Notes: generated by a model not told the origin, from the letters alone. DNA of 64,000 nucleotides from Methanobacteriota archaeon (GCA_963769885.1 CAVYNH010000001.1:13234-77233), one strand, 5' to 3'; counted from the stretch's first letter, positions 31 through 55,128 are shown. Numbers and translations: made by a program.

Positions 31-35
31 GATGG

Positions 36-2042: not shown

Positions 2043-2529
2043 ATGCTATCGACCTCTTTTTTAATATTTTTTAAATGTAATATTAGTTCATCGAGTTGGT
2101 TTGCATTTAACATCAATCCTCCGACAATGGTAAAAATATTGTATTCATCTCTTGTTTTTTCTTGGATATACACAAATTTACCAAAAGGGTTTTCGATCAA
2201 TTGAAAGTTATAATATTTTTCACCTATTTTTACATCTTTTATTAAAGTTGGATGGGCTACTTTTCCATTAGGATAATAGAGGAAATTTCTTTGACTAAAC
2301 TGTCGCCTATACAACTCTCTGATCGCTGTAAGGTAATCTAAAGTTGAGATGCGGTTCTGCGATCAATCCCTGCAACATCAGATACTTGAGGTAAACTAAT
2401 TCCTTGTGGATTATCTTTAACAACTTTTAATATGATTGAACAAGCAAATCTTTTTCTATCTTCGGGAGACATTTTTTTTAATTCCTCTTTTGAAAATCCG
2501 ATTTGACTTCTATTTATTGCGTCATCCAT
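2039..2529 (-). pseudogene. Winged-helix protein fused to a PUR/PC4-like domain (~163 aa), one frameshift near 2343
   Basis: MDDAINR...GISLPQVSDVAGIDRRTASQ continues as LDYLTAIRELYRR... after a +1 correction. The C-terminal KYYNFQLIENPFGKFVYIQE...LMLNANQLDELI resembles a PUR repeat. The stop overlaps the next start (ATGA). Confidence 0.55.
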
Positions 2530-2688
2530 TGTTTTTCTCCTTGTAATTTTATATACAACATTAAGATGCACATACCTTGTGCATAGTTATGTTGTACAGT
2601 TGATGTTGCACATAAACGGTTATTATATATATAAAGATAACTGATAGCTTTATATACTGACAATGTATTATAAAACTTGGCGAAATAT

Positions 2689-3847: not shown

Positions 3848-3878
3848 AAAGTTATATAATTCAAATGGAGATTTAAAA

Positions 3879-5321
3879 ATGGAAAACATGCAAATAAAAA
3901 CCGATACTATTTACTGCGGAGATTGCCTTGATGTATTGAGGCGATTTCCAGAAGGATTTGTAAATTTAATTTATCTTGATCCACCATTTTCAAGTGGCAG
4001 GATTTATAATATAGTGTTTGGCACTAATAGCGAAAAAAAAGCCTTTGATGATCGATGGAAAGGTGGTATTCATCATTATATTGAATATATGAGGGAAAGA
4101 CTCGAACTCTGCCATCGTGTTTTGGACAGTAAAGGGTCGATTTATTTACATTGCGATAGTCATGCAAGTCATTATCTCAAAATAGTGATGGATGATATTT
4201 TTGGTTATAATAATTTTAAGAATGAAATAATTTGGAAAAGAAAAGATGCTCAAAGTTTCACCAATAAATATGGAGCTATGCATGATACGATTTTATTTTA
4301 TACAAAATCAAATGAGTACACGTTTAACAAAGCATTAGAAGAGTACATTCCACTTAGCGAAGAAACCGCAGATACTTGGTATAAATATGAAGAAATTGCA
4401 TCGAAAAATATTATTAATCGTCTTGGGAAAAAAATTGAAAAAGGACATGTAAGACGATACAATAAAGGTGATATAAGCGCACCTGGGGATAGGCAAGGTA
4501 CGGCAGCGCATTATAAATGGAACGGAAAATATCCACCAAAGGGGAGACATTGGGAATATACGGTTGAGGTGATGGGGAGATTGGAAAGAGAAAAACGTCT
4601 TGCTTATTCTAAGAATGGAAGGGTTTATGAAAAGCGATATTTAGATGAAACAAAGGGGACACCTCCTCAAGACATTTGGACTGACATTTCTATGTTGCGT
4701 GGAATGGGTAAACATAGTGAAAAAAGTGAATGGATGGAATACCCAACTCAAAAACCAAAACGTTTACTTGAAAGAATAATACGGATTTCCTCAAATGAAA
4801 ATGACATTGTACTTGATCCTTTCTGTGGCTGTGGTACGACTATCGTTGCAGCACATTATTTGAGGAGAAAATGGATTGGTATTGATATTTCACCTACTGC
4901 ATGTAATGTCATAAAAAATCGTATGGGAAATGTAAAAAAAATGGGATTGTTTGTCGTGAAAAACATTCCTATAATTGGACTCCCAAAGACAGAAGATGAT
5001 CTTAGAAAATTGCATCCTTTCGAGTTTGAAAACTGGGTATGTGATGTTCTTTTCGCTATTCAGACGAAGAAAGCAAAAGACATGGGTATTGATGGATATA
5101 CTATTGATGGAACAGTTCTCCAAGCAAAACAAATGGATAAAGTAGGAAGACCCATAGTAGATAATTTTGAGGCATCAATGAAGCGAGCTAAAACCAATAA
5201 AGGCATAGTTATTGCTTTTAGTTTTACTAAAGATGCTTTTGAAGAGGTTGCAAGAATAAAAAGCGAGAATATAGATATTACATTAAGATCAGTAAAAGAA
5301 TTATTAGAAATGGGTTTCTAA
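3879..5321 (+). CDS. N6A/N4C DNA methyltransferase fused to a C-terminal Mrr-like endonuclease domain
   Basis: DPPF catalytic motif, YPTQKP, DPFCGCGTT SAM motif. C-terminus FEFENWV..DMGIDG..LQAKQ..VGRP..GIVIAFSFTKDA is Mrr-like. Confidence 0.9.
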   Translation: MENMQIKTDTIYCGDCLDVLRRFPEGFVNLIYLDPPFSSGRIYNIVFGTNSEKKAFDDRWKGGIHHYIEYMRERLELCHRVLDSKGSIYLHCDSHASHYLKIVMDDIFGYNNFKNEIIWKRKDAQSFTNKYGAMHDTILFYTKSNEYTFNKALEEYIPLSEETADTWYKYEEIASKNIINRLGKKIEKGHVRRYNKGDISAPGDRQGTAAHYKWNGKYPPKGRHWEYTVEVMGRLEREKRLAYSKNGRVYEKRYLDETKGTPPQDIWTDISMLRGMGKHSEKSEWMEYPTQKPKRLLERIIRISSNENDIVLDPFCGCGTTIVAAHYLRRKWIGIDISPTACNVIKNRMGNVKKMGLFVVKNIPIIGLPKTEDDLRKLHPFEFENWVCDVLFAIQTKKAKDMGIDGYTIDGTVLQAKQMDKVGRPIVDNFEASMKRAKTNKGIVIAFSFTKDAFEEVARIKSENIDITLRSVKELLEMGF

Positions 5322-12544: not shown

Positions 12545-15500
12545 TTAGCGCTTCCGCCGGCGAAGCACCACGGCGATGATGACGATGACGAGGACCGCGA
12601 TAATCCCGATGATCGCCAGCACCATCGTCTGGGAGAAGAACGAGGCCTGCTGCCGGACGTTGGGATGGTCCGATGCGCCGAATGGCGCGTGACCCGCGAC
12701 GGAAAACCCTTCTTGCGGCGCATAGATCAAGGGTTCGACGTCGCCTGGCTCCCAGTGATTCAGGGTGCTGAACGTGGTCCCGGGTACCCAGGTGCGCAGG
12801 TTGGGGTCGCCATAGAGGCAGACATTCTCCTCAAGGTCCCACCACCATACCGGCGGGTCGGAGATGTACTGGATGCCGACTTTCTTGATGCCCGCCTCGT
12901 AGATCTGGCCCATGGTCATGCCGAGGGCGATGCCGCGGGGCACGGAGTTCTGCCAGACGCCGGAATACCACGAGGTCGCCCAGGGATCCATGATTTGGAC
13001 CACCGACCCATGCCGCATAAGGGAGATGTGGAGGTATTTGCCGGCGGGTAGGCAAGCGACACTGCTGATGCTGACCGAGTGAATGTTTCCGAGCGAATCA
13101 TCAACATTACTTCCATTGTAATAGGCGGTTCCCATGCGGGTGGCAAGCAGTGAGATGACAATGCCATCGTAATAATCCTGGGTGTCTTGGAACCATTTTG
13201 GGGTGATGAGGCGTAGGATCGGCAGGCTGGCGATGTTACCCAGGATATCTCGGAGAGGGTGTTTGGCGAGCGCCAGATCCAAACCTGTTTTGATGAATCC
13301 GATGCGGGGATCCGGATTCCCAAGCATGGTGGCGATGAGGCCGTGGACCTGCATGGTCATGGTGTCCGGCTCCGTGGTGGATCCCATGAGCCATTCGTAG
13401 CCCCGCCAGGGGTTGACCTCCTTGGTTTCTGCAGCGAACGGGAACGTCTTTTTGGCGTCAGGGTTCTGACCGGTGGGGTCCCAGAACATGAGGACGCCGC
13501 CGTCGCGTGGTCCGCCGTGGGTGTTGATGAGCCAGAGGAGGATGCCTTGGTTGAGGTTGTTCATGTTGGCGTCGAAGTTGGTGGAGTAGACAGGGGAGTA
13601 CCCGCCCTGGTCGAGGTAAAAGGTCTGGACCTCGGCGGCGCTCATATCAGGCAGGTAAGCGCCGGTTTGTCCGTTGACCGCTAGCATGTCCCCGGAGTCG
13701 ATAGGGTTGAAGGATGCGGTCTGGCCAGGGATGTCCCCGTCGGCGCATTTGTACGTGAAGCCCCAGTAATTGCTCGCCCGGCTGTTGAATTTTTCTTCGT
13801 AGCAGATGAGGGTGTTCAGGGCGGGGTAGTGCAGGGTGACGTCCCCGGAGGGTCTGATGATTTTTAATCCGAGTTTTCCGCGCCAGGGGAACTGGCGTTT
13901 GCTGATGCTACCGTTGGTGAGGGTGACGCCGTCAGGGTTTTTAATACCAGGGTTTTGGAAGACGATCTGGGGGTAGAAGACGGTTTTTGCGAGCCAGACT
14001 GACAAGTCGGTTGGAGACCCGAAGAAGCGGCCGGGCTCGGCTTTGCCGACGAACATTCGGTCCCAGGAGAAGCCGATGTTGTATTGTCCGCCGACGGTGA
14101 TGAGGATTTCGTCGCCTTGTTTGTCATAGTCGAGTTGTTTGAGGTAGGAGTAGACGCGGGTTCCGGTGAGGTACATCTCGGCGACCGCGGGTTCTTTGCT
14201 GATGCCGTCGGAGTGACGTCGCCAGAGTTCGTTGTGGTAGATGACGGCGGAGGAGAACTGGGGGTGGTTTTCGACGATGAGGACGGGGCTGCCGTGTTGG
14301 GCGGCGATATAGGCGGCTGGTCCGACAGCGATTTCACCCTCTATGGGGGCTCCGGGGTGGAAGGTGGCGTTGTCCATGGTCCAGTAGTTCACGGTGGAGA
14401 AGATGACGTCGTTTTGGCCTGAGAGGGATCGGATGGTGGTGTTGATGTCGTTGAAGGTGGTGAGGTAGTGGGTGTCGGTGATGCCGTCGGTGAGGGTGGT
14501 CTTGGTGGTGCTCTTCATTGTGTTGTGGAGGTCGACGACGTAGAGGTGTGTCGTGCCGAGGGTGGCGAGGGTGCTGGTCGTGGTCTTCGGGGTGGATGCA
14601 GTGGAGGTGTAGAGGAGCGGGGCGTTGAGGAGGGAGGCGAGGACGGCGGCGTTGGCGGCGGAGTCGAGGCTGTCGCCGTAGCTGCGGGTCATGTTTTGCT
14701 TCCAGGAATAGTCGATGGTGAAGGGGGTGTCGCTGGTGAGGGGTGTTTCGGTGTAGACGCAGAGGCTGTAGTGTTCGCCGGGGAGGCATTCGCCGAGGCC
14801 GGTGAGGTGCATGTCGGTGCTGGTGCCGTCGGGGAGGGGGATGGCGCAGGCTCCCTCGGGTGTGGGGCAGGTGGTGGAGACGCCGGCTTCGCGGGTGGAG
14901 AGGATTTCTTCGCCGCTGGGGCCGATGAGGCTGAAGCCGAGGTCGACGCTGGGGTCGTTCCAGTGGAGGGTGATGGTGGCGTCTTGGCATCCGTAGGGGG
15001 GGAGGTCGGGGATGGTGAGGGTGGTGCCGGGGTACATGTTGACGTCGATTTGGTAGGTGACTTTGTGGAGGTTTTGGAGGACTTCGAGGAGTCTGCCGTA
15101 GCGGCCGAAGTGGAGGAAGAGGAGGTTGCGGGTTTTTTCGATGGGGGTGTTTTGGAAGTTGGTTGGGGTTTGGTCGGAGAGGGTCTTGGTGGGGGCGTCG
15201 GTGAGGGCGACGCTCCATTTGCCGGGGTTGTAGACGTAGGTGGAGACGTAGTCTTTGTCCATGCCTTCCATGGCGTTCCAGGCGGCGACGATGCCGGCCA
15301 TCATCCATTGGCCGTCTTTTTCGCAGTAGACTTGGAGGTCGCGGTCGCCGGCGGGGATGCTCATGTTGATGATGCCTTGGAAGCCGCCGCGTCCGATGTT
15401 GATGTAGACGCTGGGGTACCAGGAGCGGATGTAGAGCATTTTGTAGCCGTCGGGGACGGTGAATTCGTTGTAGATGGGGTAGATCTCGTTGGTCTGGGGG

Positions 15501-17874: not shown

Positions 17875-18227
17875 AGTGCCATTCTCCTGTAATAAAGTCG
17901 GTATGCTAAAATAATTATCGCCTTATAAAGTCATCGCAACTGTTTGTTTATTAGAGATACCGACCCATCCACGAAATCTTATGAGCGCATGTCTGTTTAA
18001 CTATTTTTGCTCCGTGAATAATCATCCACCAGATTAGATGATAACTTATTTAACACCATTTATTGGGCTTCGACTGAGATGGTCTACTGCCCCCCCTCAA
18101 TTTTTGCAAATTTCTTTACATAAACTAATTTTTTTCGCTTCGGGTTTTTTTTTATGATTATTATCCCTTAAGATAGAAAAATTAAAATATCTATTCACTC
18201 TTTTACAAGTCAGAGAGGGAGAATAAG

Positions 18228-19184
18228 ATGAACAAGGAAACAAAATATCTAATATTAATCATAACTTTATCATGCTTGGTTCTCACTGCAGGACCGTGCA
18301 TCGCCGTCACAGGCTCGACCCAAAACGCAAGGATTCAAATGCCAGTACCAATAGTCCCAACATCGAAAACGTCTGGAAATGGTCTTGTCGATTACTGGAG
18401 CTTCGATGAGGGCTCCGGCAGCATCGCCCATGACTCAGTCGCAGGTAACGACGGCCAAATCCACTCGTGCAACTGGGTAGCCGGCCACTCGGGAACCGCC
18501 CTGGAATTTCCTTATACTGATAGTTGGGTTGTACTCCCGGGCAGTTTTGATAGCCAGATCACGACCTTCGTCTCTATCGACGCCTGGATTTATTGGTACG
18601 GCCATGGGACATTTCCCTACTCTCATATCATCTTCGACACTCGAAGAGGCGGGTTTACTGGCGGCTACGTATTCTTCATCTGGCCTGACGGCATTCTCCG
18701 GTTCTACAACGACTTCAAGCCTGAGCAACACATCAACAGCTCGGCACCGATACCAATCAACGTATGGACCCACGTCCGTATCGATTTCAATGATGCAACC
18801 GATACGATGCAGTTGTTTATCAACGATAAGCTTGATACGACCGCGACAACAACGTACCCCCTGTTAAGTAATGATTATGGGGCTCTGATTGGGAATAATG
18901 TCTACTATGAACCGGCACCGTTTAACGGCATCATCGATGAGGTGAAGATCTACAATTCGCGGCCAACCCCTCACAACCTGTTCCTGCTAGGCAGAATTAC
19001 GAACAAGACCTCGGACAACTCCACCGTCACTTTCAATGCGAAGTCGCTGATCGTCTGGGACAAGAACGAATCGATTATCATGAAGCTTAAATCAGGCGAG
19101 CAGATAGTCGTCCTGAAGGATTATCGGGGGTTTATCGGGAAACGGTTTGTCATCGGTAAGTTCATGGGTTACGTGAATTCCTAA
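18228..19184 (+). CDS. Secreted LamG/concanavalin-like domain protein
   Basis: Signal peptide; GLVDYWSFDEGSG, WTHV, FNGIIDEVKIYN. Confidence 0.88.
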   Translation: MNKETKYLILIITLSCLVLTAGPCIAVTGSTQNARIQMPVPIVPTSKTSGNGLVDYWSFDEGSGSIAHDSVAGNDGQIHSCNWVAGHSGTALEFPYTDSWVVLPGSFDSQITTFVSIDAWIYWYGHGTFPYSHIIFDTRRGGFTGGYVFFIWPDGILRFYNDFKPEQHINSSAPIPINVWTHVRIDFNDATDTMQLFINDKLDTTATTTYPLLSNDYGALIGNNVYYEPAPFNGIIDEVKIYNSRPTPHNLFLLGRITNKTSDNSTVTFNAKSLIVWDKNESIIMKLKSGEQIVVLKDYRGFIGKRFVIGKFMGYVNS

Positions 19185-19352
19185 AAATAACCCAAGATGA
19201 CCGGGGCGGTTCTTCGTATCCTCGATTAATCGCCTCGGCCTTTCATTTATCATTTTCTATACTATTTTGTTGATTGGAAATTTGGTCTTATAAACATTTG
19301 GAGCAGGTGCAGATGCGGCCTGCGCTGCCGACGAATTGGCATGGTTCTTCTT

Positions 19353-19845
19353 CTATTGATGCGTGAGCATCCAGAGGTGGTCGCCGACGTAATGCAGCGT
19401 CTTGATTGCTTTCCCGGCCTTTGAGGCGGTCATCGCCTCCCCGGAGACGAGCGCGATACCGACGGCGAGGGGCTTGCGGTGCATCTCGTCGCAGACCCAA
19501 ACCTCGTCCCCCTCCTGGATTTCAGGGTCCGCGGACACGATTCCCGGGGCCATGACGTCCGCGCCGTTGCTAATGAACCGGATGGCGCCCATGTCGACGG
19601 TCACACAACGCCCCGGCGGCTTGTACTTGTCAATGCCGACCAGGGTCATGACCTCACGGTCGTTCCAGCGGAAAAAGTCGACCTCGTCATAGACGAGGAT
19701 GACCGTGTATTCTTCAAGCGTCCCGGTGTCCACGGTCGCCGTCTCCGGGAACAGGTCGGTCTTGTACCTGCGCCCGCAGTCGAACAAGGAGATCCCGGAC
19801 TTCTTTCTGCTTCAGACGATGCTGGTTCTTGACGTTCCTCGCCAT
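19353..19845 (-). CDS. PUA-domain RNA-binding protein (DUF1947/MCT-1-like) with one frameshift near 19767
   Basis: VDMGAIRFISNGADVMAPGI, LHYVGD. The true N-terminus MARNVKNQHRLKQKEVR lies in another frame (one extra G), probably a sequencing error. Confidence 0.85.
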
Positions 19846-29065: not shown

Positions 29066-29138
29066 GGGCCTGTGGGGTAGCTTGGTATCCTTGTGGCTTC
29101 GGGAGCCATCGACATGCGTTCAAATCGCATCAGGCCCA
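29066..29138 (+). tRNA. tRNA-Pro(CGG)
   Basis: Acceptor GGGCCTG/CAGGCCC+A, D arm, anticodon arm GTGGC-TTCGGGA-GCCAT, T arm ATGCG-TTCAAAT-CGCAT; CCA not encoded. Confidence 0.95.
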
Positions 29139-29362
29139 TTATCTTCTACAGGAGAAAAGTCTGGTAACAGACCCAAATTTGGCGTTCTGTTGGTTTTTTC
29201 CTTGCCTCGCTTTCCTGCTGATAGTTGTGTTGGTTTTTTGTATATAATTAAAGGGCTTGATTCATAATTCCCTGATGGAGGAAAAGAAGAAGGGATATCG
29301 CATCCTAATCGACATGAAATATGATAAATTGAAAAAAGGAAAAAAAGAGGAGAGGTAGGTAA

Positions 29363-30751
29363 TCATTGACCGCAAGTTCTGCAGCTCAGGTGGGGTACGA
29401 GCTGCACGTCATTAATTGAAAATAAAAACAATTTTGCTGTTGCGATAAATGGTGGGCAATCATCGATAACAATAGTCATTGTGATTTTACCTATCCCAAG
29501 AACAAAACCATTTATACTTTCGGTTGCGTACGGTAAAAAGTTGGGTATCATGCCACTCTTATGTGCTCCAAGAAGTATAAGTCCACCAGTTATTGTGACA
29601 CTCCACGGTACGTTAGTTAAAGTTTTATTGCAAATGTTATAGAAATAAATATGATACCCGGGGCCTCCTGTTATGTTGACATAGAAACAGCATTCGCCGC
29701 AGACAGGAGTGTCTTCTATGATGGGCGCTGAAGAATTCTCATCGCTCGTTGCAAATGCCATATTATGGATTATGGTTCCATTCGCGGTTTCTGGACGGAC
29801 AAGAACTAGCAGCCAGACGCATTTGGTTGAGTTCGCTATGATTGTACCGATATCCCAACGGACCGTACGGCTGCTAATGTTATAGCCTGGCGAGGCGTCT
29901 ATGAAACCCGTTTCATTCGGGAGCTGATCGGTGATAATAACATTATGTTGGGTAGATGCATGTGCGGATGTGCAAATTGTGTAATTAATGTACTCGCACT
30001 GCCATACGCAATCGGTTTCGTTGAGGTTGTCAGTCTTTGTAATTATTAAGTGTGAGCCGCAATCGATGTATGCTTCGATTAGCCAGTTGCGATCCCAAAG
30101 ACTACCGTAACTCTGTAATTCAATCCAGCCTGAGCCTGAACCGTCATTATACCAGTCGCCCTTCCCATCCACGGCCGGTCCTGAATCGAACCCTATTGGG
30201 ATTTCATCGGGATCCTGGACCATCTCCACTGATATCCATAAGTCTTCCGTGCAGTTAAATGGTACCGGCGTCGAAAGGGTTACTACAAACCAGCCTGAAT
30301 CATTAACGAAATAGGGCTGTGAACAGAGGAGCTGGCCTGGTGTAGTAGGAGTTCCCTGCCTATATATTTTGATGTTTCCATGAAGATAATTTGCATCCCA
30401 GTGATAGAACTGAACAGCGGTGAGCCGACAGCCGCAATACGGCGCGAGTTCAGTAGGGGTTAACCGTATCGCTGCTTCCCATGTAGCCCCGCCTGATATT
30501 TTAAATCCAACCCATTTGTTTGTATAGTAGTAATAGAGCCATCCTCCATTACAAATCGCGCAGGGTGTGCCTACTTCATGGTTTGTCTGTTGATGTGTAG
30601 CATCGTGAGTGTTTGTATCGAGTAGAAATGGCGCTGTATTTTCTGACTTTTTAATATCTGCCGTCACCATAAGTGATGATAAGATCAGGAGCAACGCAAT
30701 CATTACAATACCAGCATCTTTCAAAATAGTTTTTCCACCAATAGATTTCAT
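29363..30751 (-). CDS. Secreted Cys-rich beta-sandwich protein (DUF11-like domain plus shared C-terminal domain)
   Basis: Signal peptide; ITKTD..INYTI..NVIITDQLP..WDIGTI. Confidence 0.8.
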   Translation of the reverse strand: MKSIGGKTILKDAGIVMIALLLILSSLMVTADIKKSENTAPFLLDTNTHDATHQQTNHEVGTPCAICNGGWLYYYYTNKWVGFKISGGATWEAAIRLTPTELAPYCGCRLTAVQFYHWDANYLHGNIKIYRQGTPTTPGQLLCSQPYFVNDSGWFVVTLSTPVPFNCTEDLWISVEMVQDPDEIPIGFDSGPAVDGKGDWYNDGSGSGWIELQSYGSLWDRNWLIEAYIDCGSHLIITKTDNLNETDCVWQCEYINYTICTSAHASTQHNVIITDQLPNETGFIDASPGYNISSRTVRWDIGTIIANSTKCVWLLVLVRPETANGTIIHNMAFATSDENSSAPIIEDTPVCGECCFYVNITGGPGYHIYFYNICNKTLTNVPWSVTITGGLILLGAHKSGMIPNFLPYATESINGFVLGIGKITMTIVIDDCPPFIATAKLFLFSINDVQLVPHLSCRTCGQ

Positions 30752-31093
30752 CGTTTTCCTCCTTCCCCAAAACTCAGGTTATGAAAAGAAAATCTCTCGA
30801 GGGTATTTATATTTTTTTGTCTGAAATCTTATGAAATAGAAATGGTAAAAAAACCGATGTCGCGCTTCATTTGGCGTTCTCATGAATTTCCTTTCTTTTA
30901 ATAAAGATACTTTTGGAACCTTGTTTAAAACTCTATTTACCCACAATTGATGCTGGGACGCCGTGGTCATTTTAGATTTTGCGATCTATTCCTGCTTTTT
31001 CTATCCTATTCTTGATTGACGTATTTCCTAGGTTGTTTGGGCTTTATGGGAGCCTTTCTAAAAATATGTGTGAGTTAAGTATGGGAAAACATG

Positions 31094-31280
31094 AGAAAAA
31101 AAAGAAAGAGAGAGTCGGATTCAACCGTCCTTAAAACCGACAGGCCTAACAACCGCGTTCTGTCGCCGAGAATTCCTCCTGTTGACCAGATGCAGGTCGC
31201 ATCAGGCCCATCATCTTTTCCAGGAGAAAAGTCCGGCGACAGAGCCAAAAACGGCGTTCTGTTAGTTTTTCGGCCTCGCA
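31094..31280. repeat. Composite att-like site (upstream arm + tRNA 3' core + downstream arm)
   Basis: Upstream arm matches ~32869-32974; downstream arm matches ~29139-29210; 23-bp inverted repeat 31159-31181 / 31221-31243 (18/23). Confidence 0.85.
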
Positions 31281-31381
31281 GGCGGATATTTGCCCGCGTT
31301 CTTTTATTTTCTGAAAACATTTAAATAAATCCATGGGATAGCTCTTCTTTGCTGTTTTGGAAAGAAGGAGGAATAGAGAAT

Positions 31382-31867
31382 ATGAGGGAAAAAATAATTG
31401 GAATATTTGCAATAGTTCTGTTGATAGCACCTGTAATGCCAGTTTCAGGGGCATCCGAAAAAAATAGTAGTATTTCACCAGTCCCTTCTAATAGTGTTAT
31501 TAAAAATGGAAATAGAGATTTAGTTTTTAATGGTGTTATTAAAAATTGTGAATTAGATATAACCTTTGACAGATGGGTTTTAAATTTGCCTATCGGAATA
31601 CCTAACAAAATATTTGCGGTTTTATTTTATTTTTATGCTCAGGATGCTGGTACAACCGCGGAACCTTCGAATACGCATTTAAAAATCACAGGTGGAACTA
31701 AAGTATCTGGTGACGGTGATATACCTATTGATGTCACCTGTTCCTGGTGTACATTTGCTTTGTATGGATTCTTTGGAACGAGTTCTGTCACCCCCCTAAT
31801 TTCCCTTGGTGGTGAAATTAAGGGTGTTGCAAAGAGAGCAAGATTTGACTGTGGTTATCCAACATAA
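31382..31867 (+). CDS. Small secreted protein
   Basis: AGGAGG RBS; signal peptide MREKIIGIFAIVLLIAPVMPVSGA. Confidence 0.8.
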   Translation: MREKIIGIFAIVLLIAPVMPVSGASEKNSSISPVPSNSVIKNGNRDLVFNGVIKNCELDITFDRWVLNLPIGIPNKIFAVLFYFYAQDAGTTAEPSNTHLKITGGTKVSGDGDIPIDVTCSWCTFALYGFFGTSSVTPLISLGGEIKGVAKRARFDCGYPT

Positions 31868-31889
31868 AAATAATGTCAATTAATGTCTT

Positions 31890-32496
31890 CTAAGCGAGAA
31901 ATCCCCATGCTTTAGCGTGGGGATGAATCGCGTCATTTTTCTTCAAAAATTCGTTACCACGTACTGGGTGGACGCGCCCGCAGTCGCGGGCGCTCTGAAG
32001 CACCTGCCCAGGACATCTTGTATGGAACTTATTAGCAGTAGCCATAGCGTAGGCCAGAATATATACCATTTGGAATGGTGCCCGAAATACCGCTACCACA
32101 TGATGCGACGGGAGGAAATCCAAAAACTAATCGAGAATGTGGTGCGTGATGTAGCAGCACGGCATCACATCACCGTCATCGAACTCAGTGTGATGCCGGA
32201 CCACATCCACCTGGTTGCCGGCCTCCCGGCGACCATGAGCGTCTCCTCCGCCCTCCACCTCCTCAAAGGAGCCTCCTCCCATGAGATCTTCCTACGGATT
32301 CCCGCCTTCCGAATGCGGTACCCCCGGGGAGCCTTCTGGAGCCCCGGGAAATTCTTCCGCACCATTGGCGACGCCAATACAGAAACCGTGATCAACTACG
32401 TCAGAAACCATCGATTCCAACAAGCCACCCTTGACGGGTTTCCGGGGACAGCCTAACCCCCGGAAGCCCCGGCATTTATGCCGGGGAGGATGTCAC
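31890..32496 (+). mobile_element. IS200/IS605-family element, tnpA only
   Basis: Subterminal hairpins ATCCCCATGC-TTTA-GCGTGGGGAT (left) and CCCCGGCAT-TT-ATGCCGGGG followed by AGGATGTCAC (right); exact ends approximate. Confidence 0.85.
32022..32456 (+). CDS. tnpA: Y1 HUH transposase TnpA
   Basis: YHLEWCPKYR, DHIHL (HUH), LKGASS, FWSPG, VINYV. Confidence 0.95.
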   Translation: MELISSSHSVGQNIYHLEWCPKYRYHMMRREEIQKLIENVVRDVAARHHITVIELSVMPDHIHLVAGLPATMSVSSALHLLKGASSHEIFLRIPAFRMRYPRGAFWSPGKFFRTIGDANTETVINYVRNHRFQQATLDGFPGTA

Positions 32497-32557
32497 ATTC
32501 AATTTTTTTTTTATCATCGATTAGCATAAAACATGAGTCAAAACCGTGTCACTGCTT

Positions 32558-32704
32558 CTAAGGAACCTTTCTTATTCGTAGTTCACCAGCACCGATGGGT
32601 TCAATGCTCAACCGGTCTCCTGCTTTGAGGTTGTAGAGATCACAGACTCGCTTCGGCAGGGTGAGAATCATACTGTCGTTGATCTCACGAATTGTTCGTT
32701 CCAT
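32558..32704 (-). CDS. AbrB/MazE/SpoVT-type DNA-binding protein
   Basis: SMILTLPKRVCDLYNLKAGDRLSIE; start uncertain. Confidence 0.75.
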   Translation of the reverse strand: MERTIREINDSMILTLPKRVCDLYNLKAGDRLSIEPIGAGELRIRKVP

Positions 32705-32868
32705 ACGGAAAACGATATAGTTTTTTAATGTTAAATCGTTTGGGATTTCCATACGAATCAGGATTCGAAGGCACTGGTTTTTTTGGTACCGGTCTACAGA
32801 TTCAGATAAGCATATTCTACCGGTATTTCAGTATTCGAATCCCGATGTGGGCGTGTAAACGTGCAATA

Positions 32869-33018
32869 AGAAAAAAGAAAAGAAAGAGAGAGTCGGATTC
32901 AACCGTCATTAAAACCGATAGGCCTAAAAACCGCGTTCTGTCCCCGAGAATAACTCCTAGTGACCAGATGCAAGTCGCATCAGGCCCATTAACGTCTACA
33001 GGAGAAAAGTCGGGCGAC
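32869..33018. repeat. Distal att-like site (attR) with tRNA-Pro 3' core
   Basis: Near-identical to 31094-31240. Confidence 0.85.
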
Positions 33019-33265
33019 GATGTTGGTGTCAGGGCGAGGCTCTTGGTCTGACTTCTTCGTTAAAATAGGGGATTCTGCAGATATGTTTTTAAAGAAGTAA
33101 AACCAGGTTCTGAATCCCTTCTGTCATGTATTTTTATCTTTTACAGACATTTATATCAAGCTACAGGATAACAAATGGCAAGGAGGAACAGGTTCTTATA
33201 CAGAATAGCTGGTTAAAGTAAATCCTGTTTTGGTAATTTTAGAAAATAGAAGGAGGAAAAAAGAA

Positions 33266-34453
33266 ATGAAAACGAAAATCATAGGAATATGTGTAGGTAT
33301 GCTGATGTTCGCCACTGTTCTTTCAGTGGCAGCGCCGATAAATAAAAATGTCACGGAAGTTACACCCGTTACGTCTCCGTTCGCTGGAAACACAGGAGCT
33401 CCTTCGGTGTCACCGCTTTCTCAGATAAGTACGTTACTTGGGAAAACTGTGTACGGATCCAAGGTATACCCTCCTTATCCATGTAAGGAGCTTGTTTCGT
33501 TCACCTTGGATAACCCTGGCACCATCAACAATATTACTAATGCGACCTCGAAATATTTCCTTTCTGGTGGCTGTTGGGCGAATGGCGTCTGGTGGGGCTG
33601 CGAATATTCAGGGTGGTCAGATAATAACTCTAAGATATGGAAGATCAACCCCACAACTGGGAAAATGACTCTAGTCGGTCCCTCTAATACCCACGATGAT
33701 GAGAGTCTGCAAGGGCTAGCGTATGATGACACAACTGGCACCATGTATGCTTGTAGTCCCATTAACCTCTATACTATCGATATGCTCACAGGTAACGCAA
33801 CACGGGTGGGTTCCTATCTGGGACATGTTATGATAGGTATTGCATGTGATTCCAAAGGGAACCTGTATGGGGAAGAAGTAGGGAACCCGGGGTCTCTCTA
33901 TGCTATCAACAAAACGACTGCACATATCAGTTTAATTGGTCATTTCGGCTTCTATCTCAACCATTGTCAAGATATGGCATTTGATAAAGATAATGATAAA
34001 TTATACCTCGCAGCTTTAACTCAGAATGGAACAGAAAATGAAGGTGCGTTGTACTACTGTGATCAAAACACGGCAGCATGCACAAAGATCGGTATTTTTG
34101 GAACCAACCTCACTGAGATTGACGGGTTTGCTATACCCTATACATCTGATGTTGAAATAAATGGATTGAAAGGTGGAATCGGCGTACACGCGACCATAAA
34201 GAATACTGGTACGGTCAATCTCAGTAGCGTGAAATGGAGTATTGTCTTAGAAAAAGGTCTCATCATTCTGGGCAAGAAAAGTAACGGGACAATACCCTCC
34301 CTCTCTGTTGGTCAATCCGTAGATATCAAAACAGGCTTAATCCTTGGATTCGGAATGCCGAGGGTTATGATTAAGGTCGAAACTCCTGATCATTTTATAG
34401 AGAAAACTGCGAAAGCGACGGTATTGTCATTCTTCGTCCTTGGGGTAAAGTAA
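33266..34453 (+). CDS. Secreted beta-propeller-like protein with shared C-terminal domain
   Basis: AGGAGG RBS, signal peptide, repeated blades (LAYD..G.MY, LY.ID..TG, MAFD..LY). Confidence 0.8.
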   Translation: MKTKIIGICVGMLMFATVLSVAAPINKNVTEVTPVTSPFAGNTGAPSVSPLSQISTLLGKTVYGSKVYPPYPCKELVSFTLDNPGTINNITNATSKYFLSGGCWANGVWWGCEYSGWSDNNSKIWKINPTTGKMTLVGPSNTHDDESLQGLAYDDTTGTMYACSPINLYTIDMLTGNATRVGSYLGHVMIGIACDSKGNLYGEEVGNPGSLYAINKTTAHISLIGHFGFYLNHCQDMAFDKDNDKLYLAALTQNGTENEGALYYCDQNTAACTKIGIFGTNLTEIDGFAIPYTSDVEINGLKGGIGVHATIKNTGTVNLSSVKWSIVLEKGLIILGKKSNGTIPSLSVGQSVDIKTGLILGFGMPRVMIKVETPDHFIEKTAKATVLSFFVLGVK

Positions 34454-43392: not shown

Positions 43393-44643
43393 ATGAGTAG
43401 AGCCAAAAACAGAAAAGCCAGGACCCTCCCCAGAAAAACCATCCCACGGACACCGCGGTACATCATCATTGCCGTAATCAGTGTCATCCTCATCTACGCC
43501 CTCACCAGCACCTACCTCGCCTACCAAACACCCACGACACAACGACAGACCCAAACCATCGTCCATTACTCAAACAACGGCCGCTTCACCTACCTCATCT
43601 ACCTCCACAACAACACTATCTACAATAAAACCGTCCTCTACCCAGAAGAAGGCATCATCTTCACCCAACTCCTGGACCACATCAACGCCACGTTCACCTA
43701 CACCTACGAAATCAACACCACCTCATCCATCAGCGGCAACTGCAGCATCCTAGGCATCATCCAAACCAACCTGTGGAGCAAAACCTTTTCCCTCCGCCCC
43801 CAAACCCCCTTCAGCGCCATGGGACAGTACGCCACCGCGACCGTGGACTTCCCCATCGACTACGCGTACTTCGAACAAGTCTTAGAAGAAATCAATACAG
43901 AGACCGGCGTCCCGGCCCAAAACCCCGTCCTCATCATCCAAAGCCATGTGACTATCACCGCGCATACAAACCAAGGGGCCGTCTTCACATCCTTCTTCCC
44001 CGCCTTCAACCTGACCCTCGGACAGCGAACCATCGATGTTTCAAAGAATCTGATCTCCAGCGACCCGGGATCATTAACAAAAACAATAACGATAGAGACC
44101 CCTAATATCCAATCCCAGAGAAACAACTGGTCCATCATCAGCATTATCACCCTCCTCGGGCTGGCCTCAGTTGTACTATTCACCGCGAGTCCTGTCGAAA
44201 CAAAAACAAATACAGTGACCGAGGTCAAAAAAATCAAGAAGAAATATAACGAGTGGATTGTCGAAGCAGACGAACATCCGGATGCTGCGGAAGCCCGCAT
44301 CGTTTCCATTAAGTCAATCCAGGATCTCGCTAAAATCGGAGAGGAACTCGGGAAGCCCATCATCCATTATTCCCCAAAAAACGAGAACGACAAGAACAAT
44401 ACCTTCTATGTCATCGATGAAACAGTCTTTTATGAATACGTGCTCAAGCCAGCGGAGAGCAGCAAAAAAAGCACCACCTGCCCACAATGTGGGGCAACCA
44501 TCGACTATGAGGAAAATGCAGGACGAAAAGTAACCTTACGATGCCCGAACTGTGGAAGTAAGGCAGTCGCTGACGTATCTGAGGAAAAACCCTGGTCAAA
44601 TCTGTTAGCTCGAATAAAAAAACGAAGACTCAATGGCAAATAA
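43393..44643 (+). CDS. DUF5305-like membrane protein with a C-terminal zinc ribbon
   Basis: Two TMs, KYNEWIVE..SIQDLAKIGEELGKPIIH..FYVID..YEY, CPQC..CPNC; follows sipW. Confidence 0.7.
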   Translation: MSRAKNRKARTLPRKTIPRTPRYIIIAVISVILIYALTSTYLAYQTPTTQRQTQTIVHYSNNGRFTYLIYLHNNTIYNKTVLYPEEGIIFTQLLDHINATFTYTYEINTTSSISGNCSILGIIQTNLWSKTFSLRPQTPFSAMGQYATATVDFPIDYAYFEQVLEEINTETGVPAQNPVLIIQSHVTITAHTNQGAVFTSFFPAFNLTLGQRTIDVSKNLISSDPGSLTKTITIETPNIQSQRNNWSIISIITLLGLASVVLFTASPVETKTNTVTEVKKIKKKYNEWIVEADEHPDAAEARIVSIKSIQDLAKIGEELGKPIIHYSPKNENDKNNTFYVIDETVFYEYVLKPAESSKKSTTCPQCGATIDYEENAGRKVTLRCPNCGSKAVADVSEEKPWSNLLARIKKRRLNGK

Positions 44644-44758
44644 CCAAAGAATCTAAGGAAATTTTACTGTTTTCTCCCTGTCTATAATCTAGACTAGTAT
44701 CTGCTTTGACTTCGATGGAACCAATGGCGATGTTTCAACAGCTTGTGTTGTAGGTAGG

Positions 44759-45142
44759 TTAGGCGATAAGGGAGGCGATGAGGTAGCCGAGGACGACGAG
44801 GAAGGCGCCGGTGAAGTATATCAGGAGGGATGAGACGGATGTGTGGCGCCATTTTTTGATGTTTTGGTGGAGGATGAAGTTGGCGCTGATGACGAAGACG
44901 CCGAAGATGCTGATGATGGGGACCAGCTTAATGATGAGTTTTGAGAGTTCGGCGATGACAGGGGTGAGGAGGCCGAGGATGCCCATGCTGCCGATGTAGA
45001 TGACGACGGCTTCGTGTTTTTGGCGGTATCTGCCGCCGCTTTTGAAGCCGTGGGCGGTGGTGGTGTAGAGGAAGCCGGTGATGAAGGTGATGATCATCCC
45101 GGTGAGGATGAGGGTTCCCTCCTCGGTCAGGAAGTCTGCCAT
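44759..45142 (-). CDS. Four-TM membrane protein
   Basis: Hydrophobic 127 aa. Confidence 0.75.
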   Translation of the reverse strand: MADFLTEEGTLILTGMIITFITGFLYTTTAHGFKSGGRYRQKHEAVVIYIGSMGILGLLTPVIAELSKLIIKLVPIISIFGVFVISANFILHQNIKKWRHTSVSSLLIYFTGAFLVVLGYLIASLIA

Positions 45143-48847: not shown

Positions 48848-49320
48848 ACATACCAATGAAATACGTCAGCATTCTGCTTGCAACTTTCACATCGCAACTA
48901 TCCTCTTGACCTTACTGGAAATTTTTTGTTATCGGTCCCGGATGGATTGATCTACCTGGATACTCGCAATCAGTTTTCAGTTTTTTTATCGAAAGATAAG
49001 CTAAGCTATTAAGGATAAACATCAGATTCTGCCGGAACCATCACATTTTCGGATGCACGGTCTTCAGAGAAGGAGAAGGGGAGATAGATTGGATTTGTGC
49101 TGAATATAGGCCGTAAGCCTCTTTACTGCTCCTAAAAACAATCTTATTAGAAGTTCAAAAAATTGTAATTTCTCGAGAAGAAACCCTGATTATTAAAGAG
49201 ATTTTATTAGGAATAATCAATCAAGAAGTTGATGAATCTCCTAATCCCACGACAACTTAATTGAAAAAAGAAGGAAAGTATCAACTGACTTTTCTTCACA
49301 GAAGAAGAGAACGGCGTGCT

Positions 49321-49629
49321 TCACTTCTCTGTTGGAATTATCTTGATGCTATTTTTGTCTGGTATCAATGAGACTACATCGTTAGCTTTCAAATGGTATT
49401 TCGTGGCAAGTTCTTTTGGAATGCGAAACCCTAGACTTTGTCCCCATCTTGTGACCTTCGCGCGATATAACTTTATCGCCCTGTATCGGTCAGCAACATC
49501 ATGAAGCTGCTTCATATCAACGATCTCATCGCCGCACTTCGAACAAGCGTAATATTTATAGCTGATTCCCTCTGGAGTCAACGCCTCTTTCTCTTCCATC
49601 TGTTTTCCACACGTACCACATTTTTTCAT
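49321..49629 (-). CDS. Antitoxin-like protein: zinc ribbon + AbrB/MazE domain
   Basis: CGTC...CSKC; VTRWGQSLGFRIPKE. Confidence 0.85.
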   Translation of the reverse strand: MKKCGTCGKQMEEKEALTPEGISYKYYACSKCGDEIVDMKQLHDVADRYRAIKLYRAKVTRWGQSLGFRIPKELATKYHLKANDVVSLIPDKNSIKIIPTEK

Positions 49630-49630
49630 A

Positions 49631-49870
49631 TTACACCTTCTTTTCTATAGTTACAATTTTTATTCTGTTTCCAATGATTTCGTCAACGCAAATTACCGTG
49701 AAGTGTTTGTATTTTTTACTGAATTTCACGTTACTCTTACCATATCTTTTTATCGTTCCACCTTTGATGGTTGCTTCGATCATATCCGGTGTTATTCCTC
49801 GGTCCATGGCACGTATGAATGCGTGCCGTTTGATCTCTACTTCATATTGAGAGATATCCATTGATATCAT
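49631..49870 (-). CDS. DUF4258/RelE-like toxin
   Basis: HAFIRAMDRGIT..IE..I..G, KIVT; directly upstream of the antitoxin. Confidence 0.78.
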   Translation of the reverse strand: MISMDISQYEVEIKRHAFIRAMDRGITPDMIEATIKGGTIKRYGKSNVKFSKKYKHFTVICVDEIIGNRIKIVTIEKKV

Positions 49871-49933
49871 ATAGTATCCTTTAATATATAAAAGTATTGT
49901 CTGAAAATTGCTAAGTGGGGGCCGTAAGCCTCT

Positions 49934-51034
49934 TTATTTCTTCATCAGGCCCATTTCTACGAGCTTCTCCGGTAGGTACGTGTCTGTGACGTAGTCCAGC
50001 CCGTACTTCGCCAGCGCCTGCTGCTCGGACTTCTTCCCGATTTCCAGCTGCAGCTTGATCTCATGCTTCCAGAACTGGTCCTGGAACCGCGGGTCGTCCA
50101 ACTCGCTCTTCAACGCATGGATGTCCTCCGCAGTGAGCGTATCCGTCGGCAGCTTGTAGTTGACGATATCCGAGGGCGTCACCCCGAGGTACTGGGCCGC
50201 CGGCGTCGCGAGGTACTCCGAGATATGCGCGGTCTTGATCGCCCCGTACGCGACGCTGCCGTAGATCCGGAAGCTCCAGGGGTCGCAGTCCGTGAAGACC
50301 AGGACCGGCAGCCGTTTTTCCTCGTTGAGCCGCTTGATGAAACGCCGCGTCGACCGCGCCGGCTGCCCCTTAAGATGCACGAGGATCGCACGGGAGTCCG
50401 TGTCGAACCCGTTCTCCACCAGCCGGTCGAACATACCGCCGGTCTCGATCGCGACCACGAAGTCCGCGTCCACCTCCTTGAATGACAGCTTCTCCTTCTC
50501 GACATTGTAGGGGATGCCGTAGCCGGCGTCGCCGACATCGTCCTGGCAGTGGATCCGCTTCTTCTTGTTGTTCCTGGTCACCTCCTCGATGACGAGGTTG
50601 CCGATGACGCGCGCGCCGTCCTCCTCCGGACGCAGCTTGAAGTCCTCCCGCATGCAGCCGGTGATGACCTCAAGGTCCTCCGCGAGCAGGTCTGACTCAT
50701 CCTGCGTATGGAACTTCGCCAGGTTCCAGCCCTCAGAGATGTAATAGGTTTCTCTGAGCGTCGACGACTTCTTCTGGTTGATCATCTCCTTGATGAAGTC
50801 CACCATATACATCGTCCGCAGCAGCATGTACGCCCCATCCAGGGACATCGCGGACCGCTCCGTCGTCTGCTTCCCGTACTTCCAGACGTTCAGATTATCA
50901 TCGAACCGGATGTTCGCCTTCGTCCGAGTGGACAGGTTCAGATGCGGGATCTCCGCCTTCTGCAGGTCGGAGTACACCTTCTGCGCGATACTATCGATCT
51001 TGGAGATGACCTCCTTGTAGCTCTTCTCAACCAT
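49934..51034 (-). CDS. top6A: DNA topoisomerase VI subunit A
   Basis: [31 protein letters not shown]. Confidence 0.96.
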
Positions 51035-52980: not shown

Positions 52981-53164
52981 GAACTCATCCCTCCACAAGC
53001 CCACCATGGCCTGGGCATCCGACAACGTAATCTGTCAAGCTCATATAAAATTTATTCTGGTTTATTTTCAGCATCAGAAAATAATCCTACGACTCTTGCG
53101 ATGACAAAGTCGCAGATGGCATAGCTACCCGTCAATAAACATACCAGGATGTTAGTGTATACTG

Positions 53165-53317
53165 GGGCTTGGTTCATAATTCCCAACAGGAGAAATTGTT
53201 TACACGACCGCGGATTCTAGAATGCGAATAATTTGGAAGAAAAAAAGTAGGGATGCGTTAGACCTGGGAATTCTTCATGATGTATCCAACAGGAGAAACG
53301 AATTATGAACCAGGCCC
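53165..53317. mobile_element. 153-bp MITE
   Basis: 18-bp TIRs GGGCTTGGTTCATAATTC / GAATTATGAACCAGGCCC (17/18); 8-bp TSD GTATACTG at 53157-53164 and 53318-53325. Confidence 0.85.
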
Positions 53318-53493
53318 GTATACTGTTTAAATAGATGTTTCATAGAGGAGACTAGTTATTATTGATATACAAATCCCTCTTTCATATTATGCAAGATATA
53401 AATATATGATATAGATTATCATATCAAAAGTTGGAACGAAGTATGAAAGATAAATTCTTAGAGTTTATCATAGAGGCATTGCTGGTTGGGTAG

Positions 53494-54435
53494 ATGAAAG
53501 ATAGAGCGTTGAAAGTCATGGACTTATTATCGAGCAGCGATAGCTCTTTGGCAAAATTTCTAAGGATTCAAAGGAGTATCGCAGCCCTCCCGGGGATTGC
53601 TGTTTACCTTGTCGTCGGATCATATTTTACAGGGTTAAATTTTTTCCACTTGAAATTCTTACTTGGCGAGCTTGCTCTCTATCTGCTTTCAGTAGCTGTC
53701 AATGGTTATAATAATCTCTTTGACATCGAAGAGGATAAACTAGCTACATCCAGTGGAATCGTGAAGGCGAACTATTTACTGAAAGAGTTTACATGGAGGC
53801 AATTGAAATGGAATTTTATACTCACAAGCATCGCCCTTGCTTGCGTAGTGCTTCTTACTGGAAATCTAGAATTTATTGCCTTGTGCGCTTTTACATACGC
53901 CCTTGGAATTGTATACACCAAACCAATTAGACTGAAAAACAGGCCACTCATAGGTACTTTATCCAACACATATGGGTTCTCAATTTTTCCCGTACTGAGC
54001 GCCTTCTTTTTGCTCAATGGCACGCTTACAGTCGCGATTGCATTTAGCCTGTCTATTTTTCTACCCACATTCGCATCTTGCCTTATCGCCGAAATCGCGG
54101 ACCGGGAAATTGACGGGAAAATTGGAACAAGAACTACCGCCCGTTGGCTTGGTAAACGCGCCAAGACAGCTATCATGGCCGTTTTGATCTTTTCAGTTGC
54201 TTTTTATTTTGTCGCTATCTACATCCACTGGGCTGTGATTCTTGTAACTCCATTTGTGGCAGCAATTCTCTATGAAACCCGTAAGCTTTACATGGACTTC
54301 ACGGATAAGAAAGCTGATTCTGTACTTGTAAAAATAGGCGCGAATATCTCTAGAATTCTCATAATCTATGTAATAGCCGCGATAATCCTGCACGCGACAG
54401 CAGCTACTCTACTTGCAAATATTTTTAATGCCTGA
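53494..54435 (+). CDS. UbiA-family prenyltransferase
   Basis: YNNLFDIEED, YT.PIRLK.RP, EIADREID..G..T; multi-TM, low GC. Confidence 0.88.
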   Translation: MKDRALKVMDLLSSSDSSLAKFLRIQRSIAALPGIAVYLVVGSYFTGLNFFHLKFLLGELALYLLSVAVNGYNNLFDIEEDKLATSSGIVKANYLLKEFTWRQLKWNFILTSIALACVVLLTGNLEFIALCAFTYALGIVYTKPIRLKNRPLIGTLSNTYGFSIFPVLSAFFLLNGTLTVAIAFSLSIFLPTFASCLIAEIADREIDGKIGTRTTARWLGKRAKTAIMAVLIFSVAFYFVAIYIHWAVILVTPFVAAILYETRKLYMDFTDKKADSVLVKIGANISRILIIYVIAAIILHATAATLLANIFNA

Positions 54436-54514
54436 AAAAGGATTCTATGCTTCAAGTATTAGCACGACTTAAACCAACTTTTGTGCTAATCATTAACAAC
54501 CCTGGATAAAACAT

Positions 54515-54539
54515 CCAAGGGTTCAAATCCCTTCCCCTG
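54515..54539 (+). other. tRNA 3' fragment (T arm + acceptor half), att-like relic
   Basis: AAGGG-TTCAAAT-CCCTT-CCCCTG with no 5' half. Confidence 0.55.
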
Positions 54540-54547
54540 AATTGAAT

Positions 54548-54932
54548 TTTATATAATACGAGTTTTTATTTTAACACAACCACGAGCGTAGTTCTCTCGG
54601 TCAATGTATCAAATCAAGGTCCAGACTCCTGCAATAACTATTCCTGCGAAATAAAAATCTATGGCATTGTTGGTCATAGAGTTAATCTTATCAGAATGTG
54701 GTTGTACCCATGGTTTGCTGGAATAACGTATAACGGTTCAGCGATTGCACCTGGTGATTATGAGAAAAAAAATGTTACAATATGTAATCCAGGAAGGGGA
54801 TTGTGGATTGCACGATGTACTATCACTTCTTCTGGAGATACCAATCATAAGGATAACAAATGCCACTGCTTGATTTGGGTACCTGAATTGTATTTCCTCC
54901 ATAAATTCTTACCGAAAATATTTCCAAGATAA
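54548..54932 (+). pseudogene. 5'-truncated CARDB-like secreted protein remnant
   Basis: The open frame extends upstream of 54696 (VNVSNQGPD) to a stop with no start or signal peptide; amphipathic tail FLHKFLPKIFPR. Confidence 0.55.
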
Positions 54933-55128
54933 AACCGTGCCATCGCTTAATCGCCCAGGGAATCAGGCATAGAAAGCACGAACCCCTGATGAATACGGTC
55001 CTCCGACTATTGATTTGTATTCGTTTTTTTTCTTTTCAACGCAGAGTAGAAGCGTTTATAAACAAATATTTACTTGTGCACACCGAACTTTCTCCCTATA
55101 AAACATTCAACCAAAGGTACGACGCTCT

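Follow-up and report, generated by a model that had tools for sequence, protein, structure and literature searches.

A probable stack of decayed integrative elements at the tRNA-Pro(CGG) gene of an uncultured archaeon

Two described systems come close to the locus considered here. In streptococci, cis-mobilizable elements (CIMEs) and the tandem, site-specific accretion of elements at tRNA genes have been reported (Pavlovic 2004; Bellanger 2011; summarised in PMC5704250), and in Prochlorococcus genomic islands at tRNA genes are built by tycheposons (bioRxiv 10.1101/2020.12.28.424599). The subject of this work is the region between positions 29,066 and 33,018 of a 64,000-nucleotide stretch from a Methanobacteriota archaeon (GCA_963769885.1 CAVYNH010000001.1:13234-77233; the whole stretch is hereafter the window), where a tRNA-Pro(CGG) gene is followed by two small gene units delimited by copies of the tRNA 3' end. 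This locus is probably a stack of two or three decayed elements, each encoding in its original form a replication protein (Rep) and an integrase (Int), that were successively integrated at tRNA-Pro(CGG). Among described kinds it comes nearest to the CIME with tandem accretion, together with island building of the tycheposon type; it is not an integron. Serial insertion followed by decay is an already known route to genomic islands, and it is found here in an unstudied family of archaeal elements, in an uncultured archaeon of the Thermoplasmata from sediment.

As CIMEs are portrayed in that summary, they share with the window units the loss of the mobility genes, the conservation of both the left and right attachment (att) sites, attL and attR, the tandem stacking at a regenerated target and the decay from autonomous relatives. 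On the same account they differ from the window units, which have an archaeal host and whose parents are plasmid-like elements of 8-10 kb with Rep and Int, not integrative and conjugative elements or integrative mobilizable elements. The window units, of approx. 1-2 kb, are also far smaller than CIMEs, and mobility in cis, a trait of CIMEs, is at most putative for them. As in the tycheposon islands, successive integrations at one tRNA gene would have pushed the older elements outwards with retention of their cargo, and fragmented integrases and partial tRNAs are scattered through the island. In contrast with tycheposons, the locus belongs to another domain of life and to an unrelated element family, and it has kept long recognisable arms, P and P', on the two sides of the att core (O).

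The anatomy of the repeats is directly visible in the window. The core TCGCATCAGGCCCAT, of 15 nt, is present in exact copies at 29125, 31197 and 32975 in a search of the whole window, where no fourth copy was found even allowing up to 2 mismatches; in shuffled sequences the mean number of copies was 0.19, and three matches were reached in none of 100 shuffles. A block of 145 nt is common to sites 2 (31096-31240) and 3 (32874-33018) with 89% identity, and 74 nt are common to sites 1 and 2 with 85% identity; site 3 retains approx. 30 nt past the core. The site types along the locus are B-O-P', P-O-P' and P-O-x, so that the units are bounded by attL and attR. The distance from core to core is 2,072 bp for unit 1 and 1,778 bp for unit 2, or 1,161 bp for the latter after subtraction of its insertion sequence (IS) of 617 bp. 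An earlier interpretation, the sequence-only reading, had reported these three cores, the shared arms and unit sizes of 2.07 kb and approx. 1.2 kb without the IS, and the exact search, the repeat alignment and the measured lengths agree with it. The target, the cores and the P arms are the following:

29066-29138, plus strand: tRNA-Pro(CGG), the integration target (attB), detected by ARAGORN and as tRNA by Rfam (54 bits).
29125-29139: core copy 1, the last 14 nt of tRNA-Pro(CGG) and the next base, from the core search.
31197-31211, plus strand: core copy 2, in the hybrid P-O-P' site, from the core search.
32975-32989, plus strand: core copy 3, from the core search.
31088-31196, plus strand: P arm of unit 1, a repeat shared with site 3 that aligns with 8 more copies from 6 other genomes.
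32866-32974, plus strand: P arm of unit 2, slightly decayed, with CTCCTAGTG where unit 1 has CTCCTGTTG.

The P arm of unit 1 shows at its outer end a purine run that corresponds to a T-run terminator on the minus strand, followed by a palindromic R site at 31138-31165 and by CTCCTGTTG at 31176-31184. On the other side of core 2, CAGGAG (31221-31226) lies between the core and a second palindrome, R' (31237-31265). This order, i.e., T-run (minus strand), R, CTCCTGTTG, core, CAGGAG and R', is the same as that of an element found in the related genome G088, which is described below. The half-sites of R co-vary among element subfamilies (ACAG..CTGT, ATAG..CTAT and GAGTTT..AAACTC), which fits protein-binding palindromes, and the R palindromes together with the CTCCTG/CAGGAG motifs are putative binding sites of the integrase or of accessory proteins. 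The region from 29 to approx. 35 kb is a low-GC island, with approx. 43% GC versus approx. 58% in its surroundings and in the genome, and neither arm has a further copy in the 2.09-Mb genome outside the tRNA-Pro(CGG) locus. Tandem direct repeats whose arm palindromes could fold might also be produced with no mobile element at all, by local segmental duplication or unequal crossing-over in the 3' region of the tRNA, or as a structured RNA or regulatory repeat. This explanation is scarcely credible, given that the real tRNA has no counterpart of the P arm upstream, that in other genera the arms are found joined to elements with an integrase and to cores of other tRNAs, that the DNA between the repeats holds unrelated cargo of low GC, and that Rfam matches nothing but the tRNA. 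As candidate pseudo-tRNAs or structured RNAs, sites 2 and 3 were rejected, with no Rfam match at E <= 0.1.

On the minus strand, the P' arms contain the 3' coding end of an integrase gene, in three stubs of different length:

29123-29236, minus strand: P' arm 1, the last approx. 51 integrase codons, ending at a TGA in the T-loop of the tRNA; it aligns to integrase C-termini.
31212-31284, minus strand: P' arm 2, the last approx. 27 integrase codons, with R' at 31237-31265, from an integrase-tail match.
32990-33018, minus strand: P' arm 3, approx. 10 integrase codons, cut within R', from the repeat alignment and an integrase-tail match.

The translation of P' arm 1 ends with ...GKRGKEKTNRTPNLGLLPDFSPVEDNGPDAI and a stop, and its DNA includes CAGGAG and the palindromic R' site (AACAG..CTGTT). 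With tblastn, the stub of site 1 was matched to the last 51 residues of integrases (E = 1e-4), and the DNA of this arm shares 85% identity with the P' arm of an integrase-bearing element of the genome G124; beyond the arm, the similarity to integrase-bearing copies runs for approx. 58 nt more, at 55-60% versus a background of approx. 30-35%. For P' arm 2, the similarity to integrase genes stops at the end of the arm. When 11 integrases were compared with all the arrays by tblastn, the C-terminal tails were the only matches, and no fragment of the catalytic domain was detected in the window. Before the stop codon, the tail reads EKTNRTPNLGLLPDFSPVEDNGPDAI at window site 1, EKTNRTRFSGLLTKFSPVGADGPARI in G040 and EKINRTPFSALSNRFSPVRDNGPAEI in G088, the last two being genomes with an integrase gene at a tRNA-Pro. 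The stubs are nested and shorten away from the tRNA (approx. 51, 27 and 10 codons), as they should if age increases outwards, and P' arm 3 would be the oldest integrase-tail remnant. An 81-aa P'-O-P tail open reading frame (ORF), used as a query for longer proteins, gave no match. A plus-strand ORF over site 2 (31091-31324, 77 aa) was discarded as a gene, given that 4 of 7 homologous copies are interrupted by stops in the plus frame; its apparent synonymous pattern arises because its third-codon positions coincide with the minus-strand frame of the integrase tail, and in G040 and G088 the minus frame opposite to it is proven to encode an integrase.

From an integrase coding tail within the P' arm and from the nesting of the stubs, it follows that the units are deletion derivatives of integrase-bearing elements. 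A metagenome contig of the genus g18 (L143) shows a P-O-P' site followed by a longer stub of 70-79 aa, which includes ...PVDWISLALKP... and a degenerate catalytic-Tyr region, and the integrase beyond this stub is replaced by a toxin-antitoxin-like pair; in the genome G014, the tRNA and three P-O sites show no recognisable P'. Deletion end-points that vary inside the integrase gene are predicted by the decay of integrase-bearing elements.

Intact or nearly intact parents were found among relatives. The family comparison set comprised 108 genomes of 40 genera, and the related loci come from metagenome-assembled genomes (MAGs) of uncultured Thermoplasmata/Thermoplasmatota, some of them from Guaymas Basin and White Oak River sediments; the isolate SM1-50 belongs to Marine Benthic Group D. 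With a sequence model, the P arm was detected in 33 of the 108 genomes and 16 of the 40 genera, often joined to other tRNA cores. In G040, at tRNA-Pro(TGG), and in G088, at tRNA-Pro(GGG), a PF00589 integrase ORF convergent with the tRNA traverses a P' arm homologous to that of the window and stops at the antisense T-loop TGA, and at tRNA-Pro(CGG) itself integrases with the same tail are present in L059 (intact, 424 aa), G131:C100 and G124:C40. Derivation by deletion from an integrase-bearing element of the same att site, as in a CIME, is therefore indicated by the stubs and by the loci of G040, G088, L059, G124 and G131. This integrase family comprises 33 archaeal loci (L058-L090), nearly always convergent with a tRNA gene (Pro, Ala, Ile, Arg, Met or Glu) and in most cases reading into it. 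The ORFs commonly run antisense through the 3' part of the target tRNA, whose sequence sets the last 5-25 residues, e.g., ...NGPDAI and stop at tRNA-Pro or ...CSCRDSNPSRSLERAS and stop at tRNA-Glu.

Both limits of the G088 element are present, with a 20/20 core repeat 8.3 kb apart and a palindromic R repeat of approx. 30 nt in both arms. Its Rep, of the rolling-circle type (PF23343), is encoded beside the P arm, and the other genes specify two secreted proteins of the NosD/beta-helix kind, a fragment of a beta-propeller and Int, the integrase carrying one in-frame stop. No virion hallmark is present in this element, and a viral origin was rejected, also because IMG/VR yielded no relatives by protein or by pattern. 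Three further integrase-bearing elements, of 9.6-10.1 kb, extend from a tRNA-Arg to a P arm (L129, L132 and G088:C37). By their homology, the arms of the window are the two predicted halves of the attP of elements of approx. 8-10 kb that encode Rep and a tyrosine integrase and target tRNA genes. The element family, characterised by Rep, an integrase tail that runs into the tRNA, an attP of approx. 175 bp and a palindromic repeat per arm, had not been described in Thermoplasmata before.

In Archaea, 'gene capture' by suicidal integrases of the SSV type has been reviewed together with the classical integrases of the pNOB8/SNJ2 type (PMC8371274). With the archaeal integrated elements covered there the locus shares the tRNA targets, an attP that overlaps the integrase ORF and the presence in chromosomes of trapped, integrase-defective elements. 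Unlike the SSV type, the integrases of the relatives belong to PF00589 and not to PF16795, and they are whole beside the tRNA with no int(N)/int(C) split. Their PF00589 catalytic domain ends approx. 66 aa before the stop and att overlaps that tail only; since the catalytic domain is clear of att, the integrase stays whole after integration, as in the classical and not in the suicidal mode. A PF00589 gene by attL, a regenerated tRNA 3' end and a far core are all found in the relatives, whereas the window has no integrase; there its loss would be due to deletion, versus partition in the SSV type.

Concerning the genome of the window itself, scans of all ORFs with Pfam and PHROGs detected no integrase or other mobility gene in the units, and no PF00589 integrase is present on the window contig (C1), the 8 matches of the genome being on C4, C6 and C7. 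An integrase with the arms of the window was not found in this genome. The integrase next to tRNA-Pro(TGG), at C7:200081-201600, likewise reads antisense into its tRNA, but it is unlikely to be the cognate enzyme, as it shares only 34% identity with the integrase fragment of G040 and has a different palindrome in its P'. Two other observations probably represent more integrated elements or remnants: a weak P-arm-like match at C6:590121-590223 (E approx. 5e-4), located 9.6 kb from a tRNA-Met (approx. C6:599795-599870) with no integrase between them, and a 450-aa integrase of the same family at C4:132041-133396, which adjoins tRNA-Arg(CCG).

These data bear on several proposals of the sequence-only reading. 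The succession B-O-P', P-O-P' and P-O-x, which it had ascribed to successive integrations, is reinforced by the homology of the arms to the att arms of integrase-bearing elements at tRNA-Pro genes of relatives, and its statement that the units contain no recombinase extends to the whole contig. The tyrosine recombinase that it expected beside the same arms is present at tRNA-Pro in relatives, with near-identical P' arms, but not in the genome itself. It had also likened the array to an integron of dedicated integrase-less cassettes. The nested integrase stubs instead mark the units as remnants of larger Rep and Int elements, an outcome that the reading had itself named beforehand as contrary to its proposal, and the analogy with integrons fails, with neither IntI nor attC detected and a P' arm that is the 3' coding tail of an integrase. 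The resemblance to integrons and to clusters of attC sites lacking integron integrases (CALINs) is superficial: small gene units are separated by a repeated recombination site and have no recombinase inside. In contrast with those systems, the window has no IntI, attI, attC or Pc, its sites are attP halves with a tRNA core, and its units descend from autonomous elements and are neither co-oriented nor promoterless, as the genes lie on both strands, each with its own upstream region of 120-340 nt. A true integron-like system, in which a dedicated recombinase encoded elsewhere would capture promoterless single-gene cassettes at a primary site borne by the tRNA, is therefore very improbable.

The events that probably gave rise to the locus are the following. 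Small plasmid-like elements, with a rolling-circle-type Rep, a classical tyrosine integrase and few accessory genes, would insert serially into the 3' end of tRNA-Pro(CGG) by means of an attP composed of P arm, a tRNA core of 15-20 nt and P' arm. Every integration would rebuild the tRNA and shift the older elements outwards, leaving tRNA-O-P' at the tRNA, P-O-P' between elements and P-O-x at the distal end. Deletions would then remove Rep and the body of the integrase, with survival of one or two accessory genes and of the short att arms, and the end product would be att-flanked units without integrase, in the CIME sense. The newest element would be the one nearest to the tRNA, and at present the units would be immobile in their own genome unless a cognate element arrives.

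Comparison of the tRNA-Pro locus among relatives revealed that the units vary in number and content, as had been anticipated from the sequence: one was found in G001, three in G014, one in G114 and one in G119. In G001, which belongs to the same genus, synteny extends up to the tRNA and the P' arm and is followed by a single unit of 2.15 kb with different genes, whose cargo is a membrane protein of the metallo-beta-lactamase fold. Its degenerate P-O site is fused directly to a 3' fragment of a DUF5305 gene (window position 44326), and approx. 11 kb next to att, with the whole cluster of TasA-like fibre, C25 peptidase and signal peptidase, is absent from G001. The fusion lies at L017 (G001:C22), approx. 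14120-14310 on the reverse complement, and is the counterpart of window 33.0-44.3 kb. The G014 units carry an adhesin with EarA and UppS, an AbiEii pair and Fic/DOC, the G114 unit a PIN gene and the G119 unit a CcdA-like gene. In the population of the window itself, one further contig (Logan, ERR10755944) has the same arrangement with 99.97% identity.

Differences between strains were observed at the cores of another genus, g18. In 3 of 4 genomes the contig ends 0-650 bp past tRNA-Pro(CGG), breaks that fit repeats or strain heterogeneity at a hot spot; these ends (G124:C40, G117:C90 and G130:C144, i.e., L137, L138 and L140) fall once in the tRNA and once in the integrase. Two g18 metagenome contigs share 5,844 bp with 99.98% identity and then diverge 25 nt past the homologous core, one into the stub-bearing unit of L143, here called Y, and the other into a flank, F, which on a third g18 contig is joined to a different left-hand unit. 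The three contigs (L142, L143 and L144, i.e., Ga0307446_1000470, Ga0307446_1001709 and Ga0315536_1001394, two of them from the same sample) represent three haplotypes whose segments are 99.5-99.98% identical and are swapped exactly at the P-O core. These haplotypes reveal that cores of this kind have been the site of recent recombination or of independent integration; a site-specific as well as a homologous mode of recombination fits. For unit Y, 8 contigs were searched for the right boundary, and over 1.15 kb none of them shows a P arm. The exact sequence of its 207-aa DUF6036/DUF2204 nucleotidyltransferase-like protein is preceded on most contigs by a 312-aa winged helix-turn-helix gene, and on one contig (L151 versus L143) by a 97-aa gene that arose through a deletion inside the partner gene; the pieces aligned by BLAST are 100% identical.

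Several of these results weigh against a history of accretion followed by decay. In the sampled genomes, units without an integrase (at least 11) and copies with one (approx. 8) have similar frequencies, and the former are strikingly small, 0.9-2 kb. The polymorphism of g18 occurs at a unit with an integrase stub only, so that such remnants may still recombine, and no deletion intermediate of the window units themselves was found. In addition, the whole R' is kept in every retained P' stub but the oldest, as would also be expected from selection for a minimal functional attP, although it could equally stem from survivorship bias in the detection of the arms. The integrase-less units might accordingly be functional non-autonomous cassettes still, of a CIME form or resembling miniature inverted-repeat transposable elements (MITEs), moved in trans by a related integrase or in cis after accretion, and tRNA-Pro would be a platform for the exchange of surface and defence genes. 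Units 1 and 2 do keep both arms, the cores and apparently intact R and R' palindromes, small integrase-less units recur across several genera and tRNAs, near-identical g18 strains differ exactly at the core junction beside a stub-only unit, and the g18 MAG contigs break just past tRNA-Pro(CGG), as strain-variable DNA would. Excision of trapped archaeal elements by related incoming integrases has also been proposed (PMC8371274).

Nevertheless, such mobile cassettes are considered unlikely. The arms are confined to one locus in a genome that has no integrase carrying them, and the second sample shows the same arrangement. No unit was found again, in identical form, at a second place: for the unit 1 cargo the 108 family genomes contain no near-identical copy, the G114 PIN unit and window unit 2 have unrelated antitoxins, and the nucleotidyltransferase unit of L143 and the AbiEii unit of G014 are unrelated as well. 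The different end-points of the stubs and the loss of P' at site 3 and at the G014 sites indicate that a functional attP is not maintained, and homologous recombination between repeats of approx. 120 nt, or independent integrations, can also explain the g18 polymorphism. It is likewise doubtful that units of 1-2 kb with a minimal attP form a population of 'mini-integrative elements' moved in trans by a few Rep and Int helpers. If they did, the tRNA genes of this Thermoplasmata family would be platforms where genes for toxin-antitoxin systems, defence and surface proteins are exchanged, and these elements, based on tRNA att sites, would correspond in function to integron cassettes or MITEs, but in Archaea. 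Decay of integrase-bearing elements after their accretion is the explanation preferred here.

The cargo of the two units and the gene that follows them are listed below:

29363-30751, minus strand, i.e., the integrase orientation: cargo of unit 1, a modular surface protein of 462 aa that is secreted and has a DUF11/CLIPPER domain.
31382-31867, plus strand: unit 2 cargo, a secreted protein of approx. 161 aa of no known family; a 161-aa gene is called on the Logan contig.
31880-32496, plus strand: IS of the IS200/IS605 type with TnpA only, a Y1 transposase (PF01797, E = 7.5e-28).
32558-32752, minus strand: cargo of unit 2, a putative antitoxin of 64 aa that resembles AbrB/MazE (PF04014, E = 1e-4, short of the family cut-off).
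33230-34453, plus strand: a secreted protein of 407 aa, encoded past site 3 in what is left of the low-GC DNA.

No near-identical copy of the unit 1 protein exists in the 108 family genomes, though its domains recur in hundreds of proteins. Its C-terminal approx. 100 aa (residues approx. 355-450) are found family-wide on hundreds of otherwise different secreted proteins and may be a domain for sorting or anchoring; in several matches a single in-frame stop lies just inside. In unit 2, the AbrB/MazE-like gene adjoins the P arm without a toxin partner; it has one paralogue in the genome, with 36% identity, and no record elsewhere. The IS has a second copy, 100% identical, at C6:39348-39964, which indicates recent transposition; an Rfam HgcC match over its 3' end (32388-32509) is sub-threshold, with 28 bits versus a cut-off of 50 bits. 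The 407-aa secreted gene is a probable relic of an older unit whose distal att site is gone. The locus is flanked on the left by a C25 peptidase gene and on the right by a TasA-like fibre cluster that starts at 34739. Other patches of low GC (0.29-0.47) lie at 1-5000, 17929-19357, 44000-45000, 49000-50000 and 53000-55000, and the patch at 17.9-19.4 kb is missing from the syntenic region of G001.

The sequence-only reading had assigned to each unit one secreted-protein gene, in either orientation, and a third one after site 3; this was correct, but it had left out the AbrB/MazE-like gene of unit 2. The theme of a secreted proteome drawn from these genes suits the cargo of the window and extends only in part to the relatives, whose units contain mostly toxin-antitoxin or abortive-infection genes. 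If the locus arose by accretion and decay, it would illustrate a route by which an uncultured, protein-degrading sediment archaeon gains strain-specific genes for surface proteins and toxin-antitoxin systems: small elements would integrate repeatedly at tRNA-Pro, and decay would then keep those genes that are useful or addictive.

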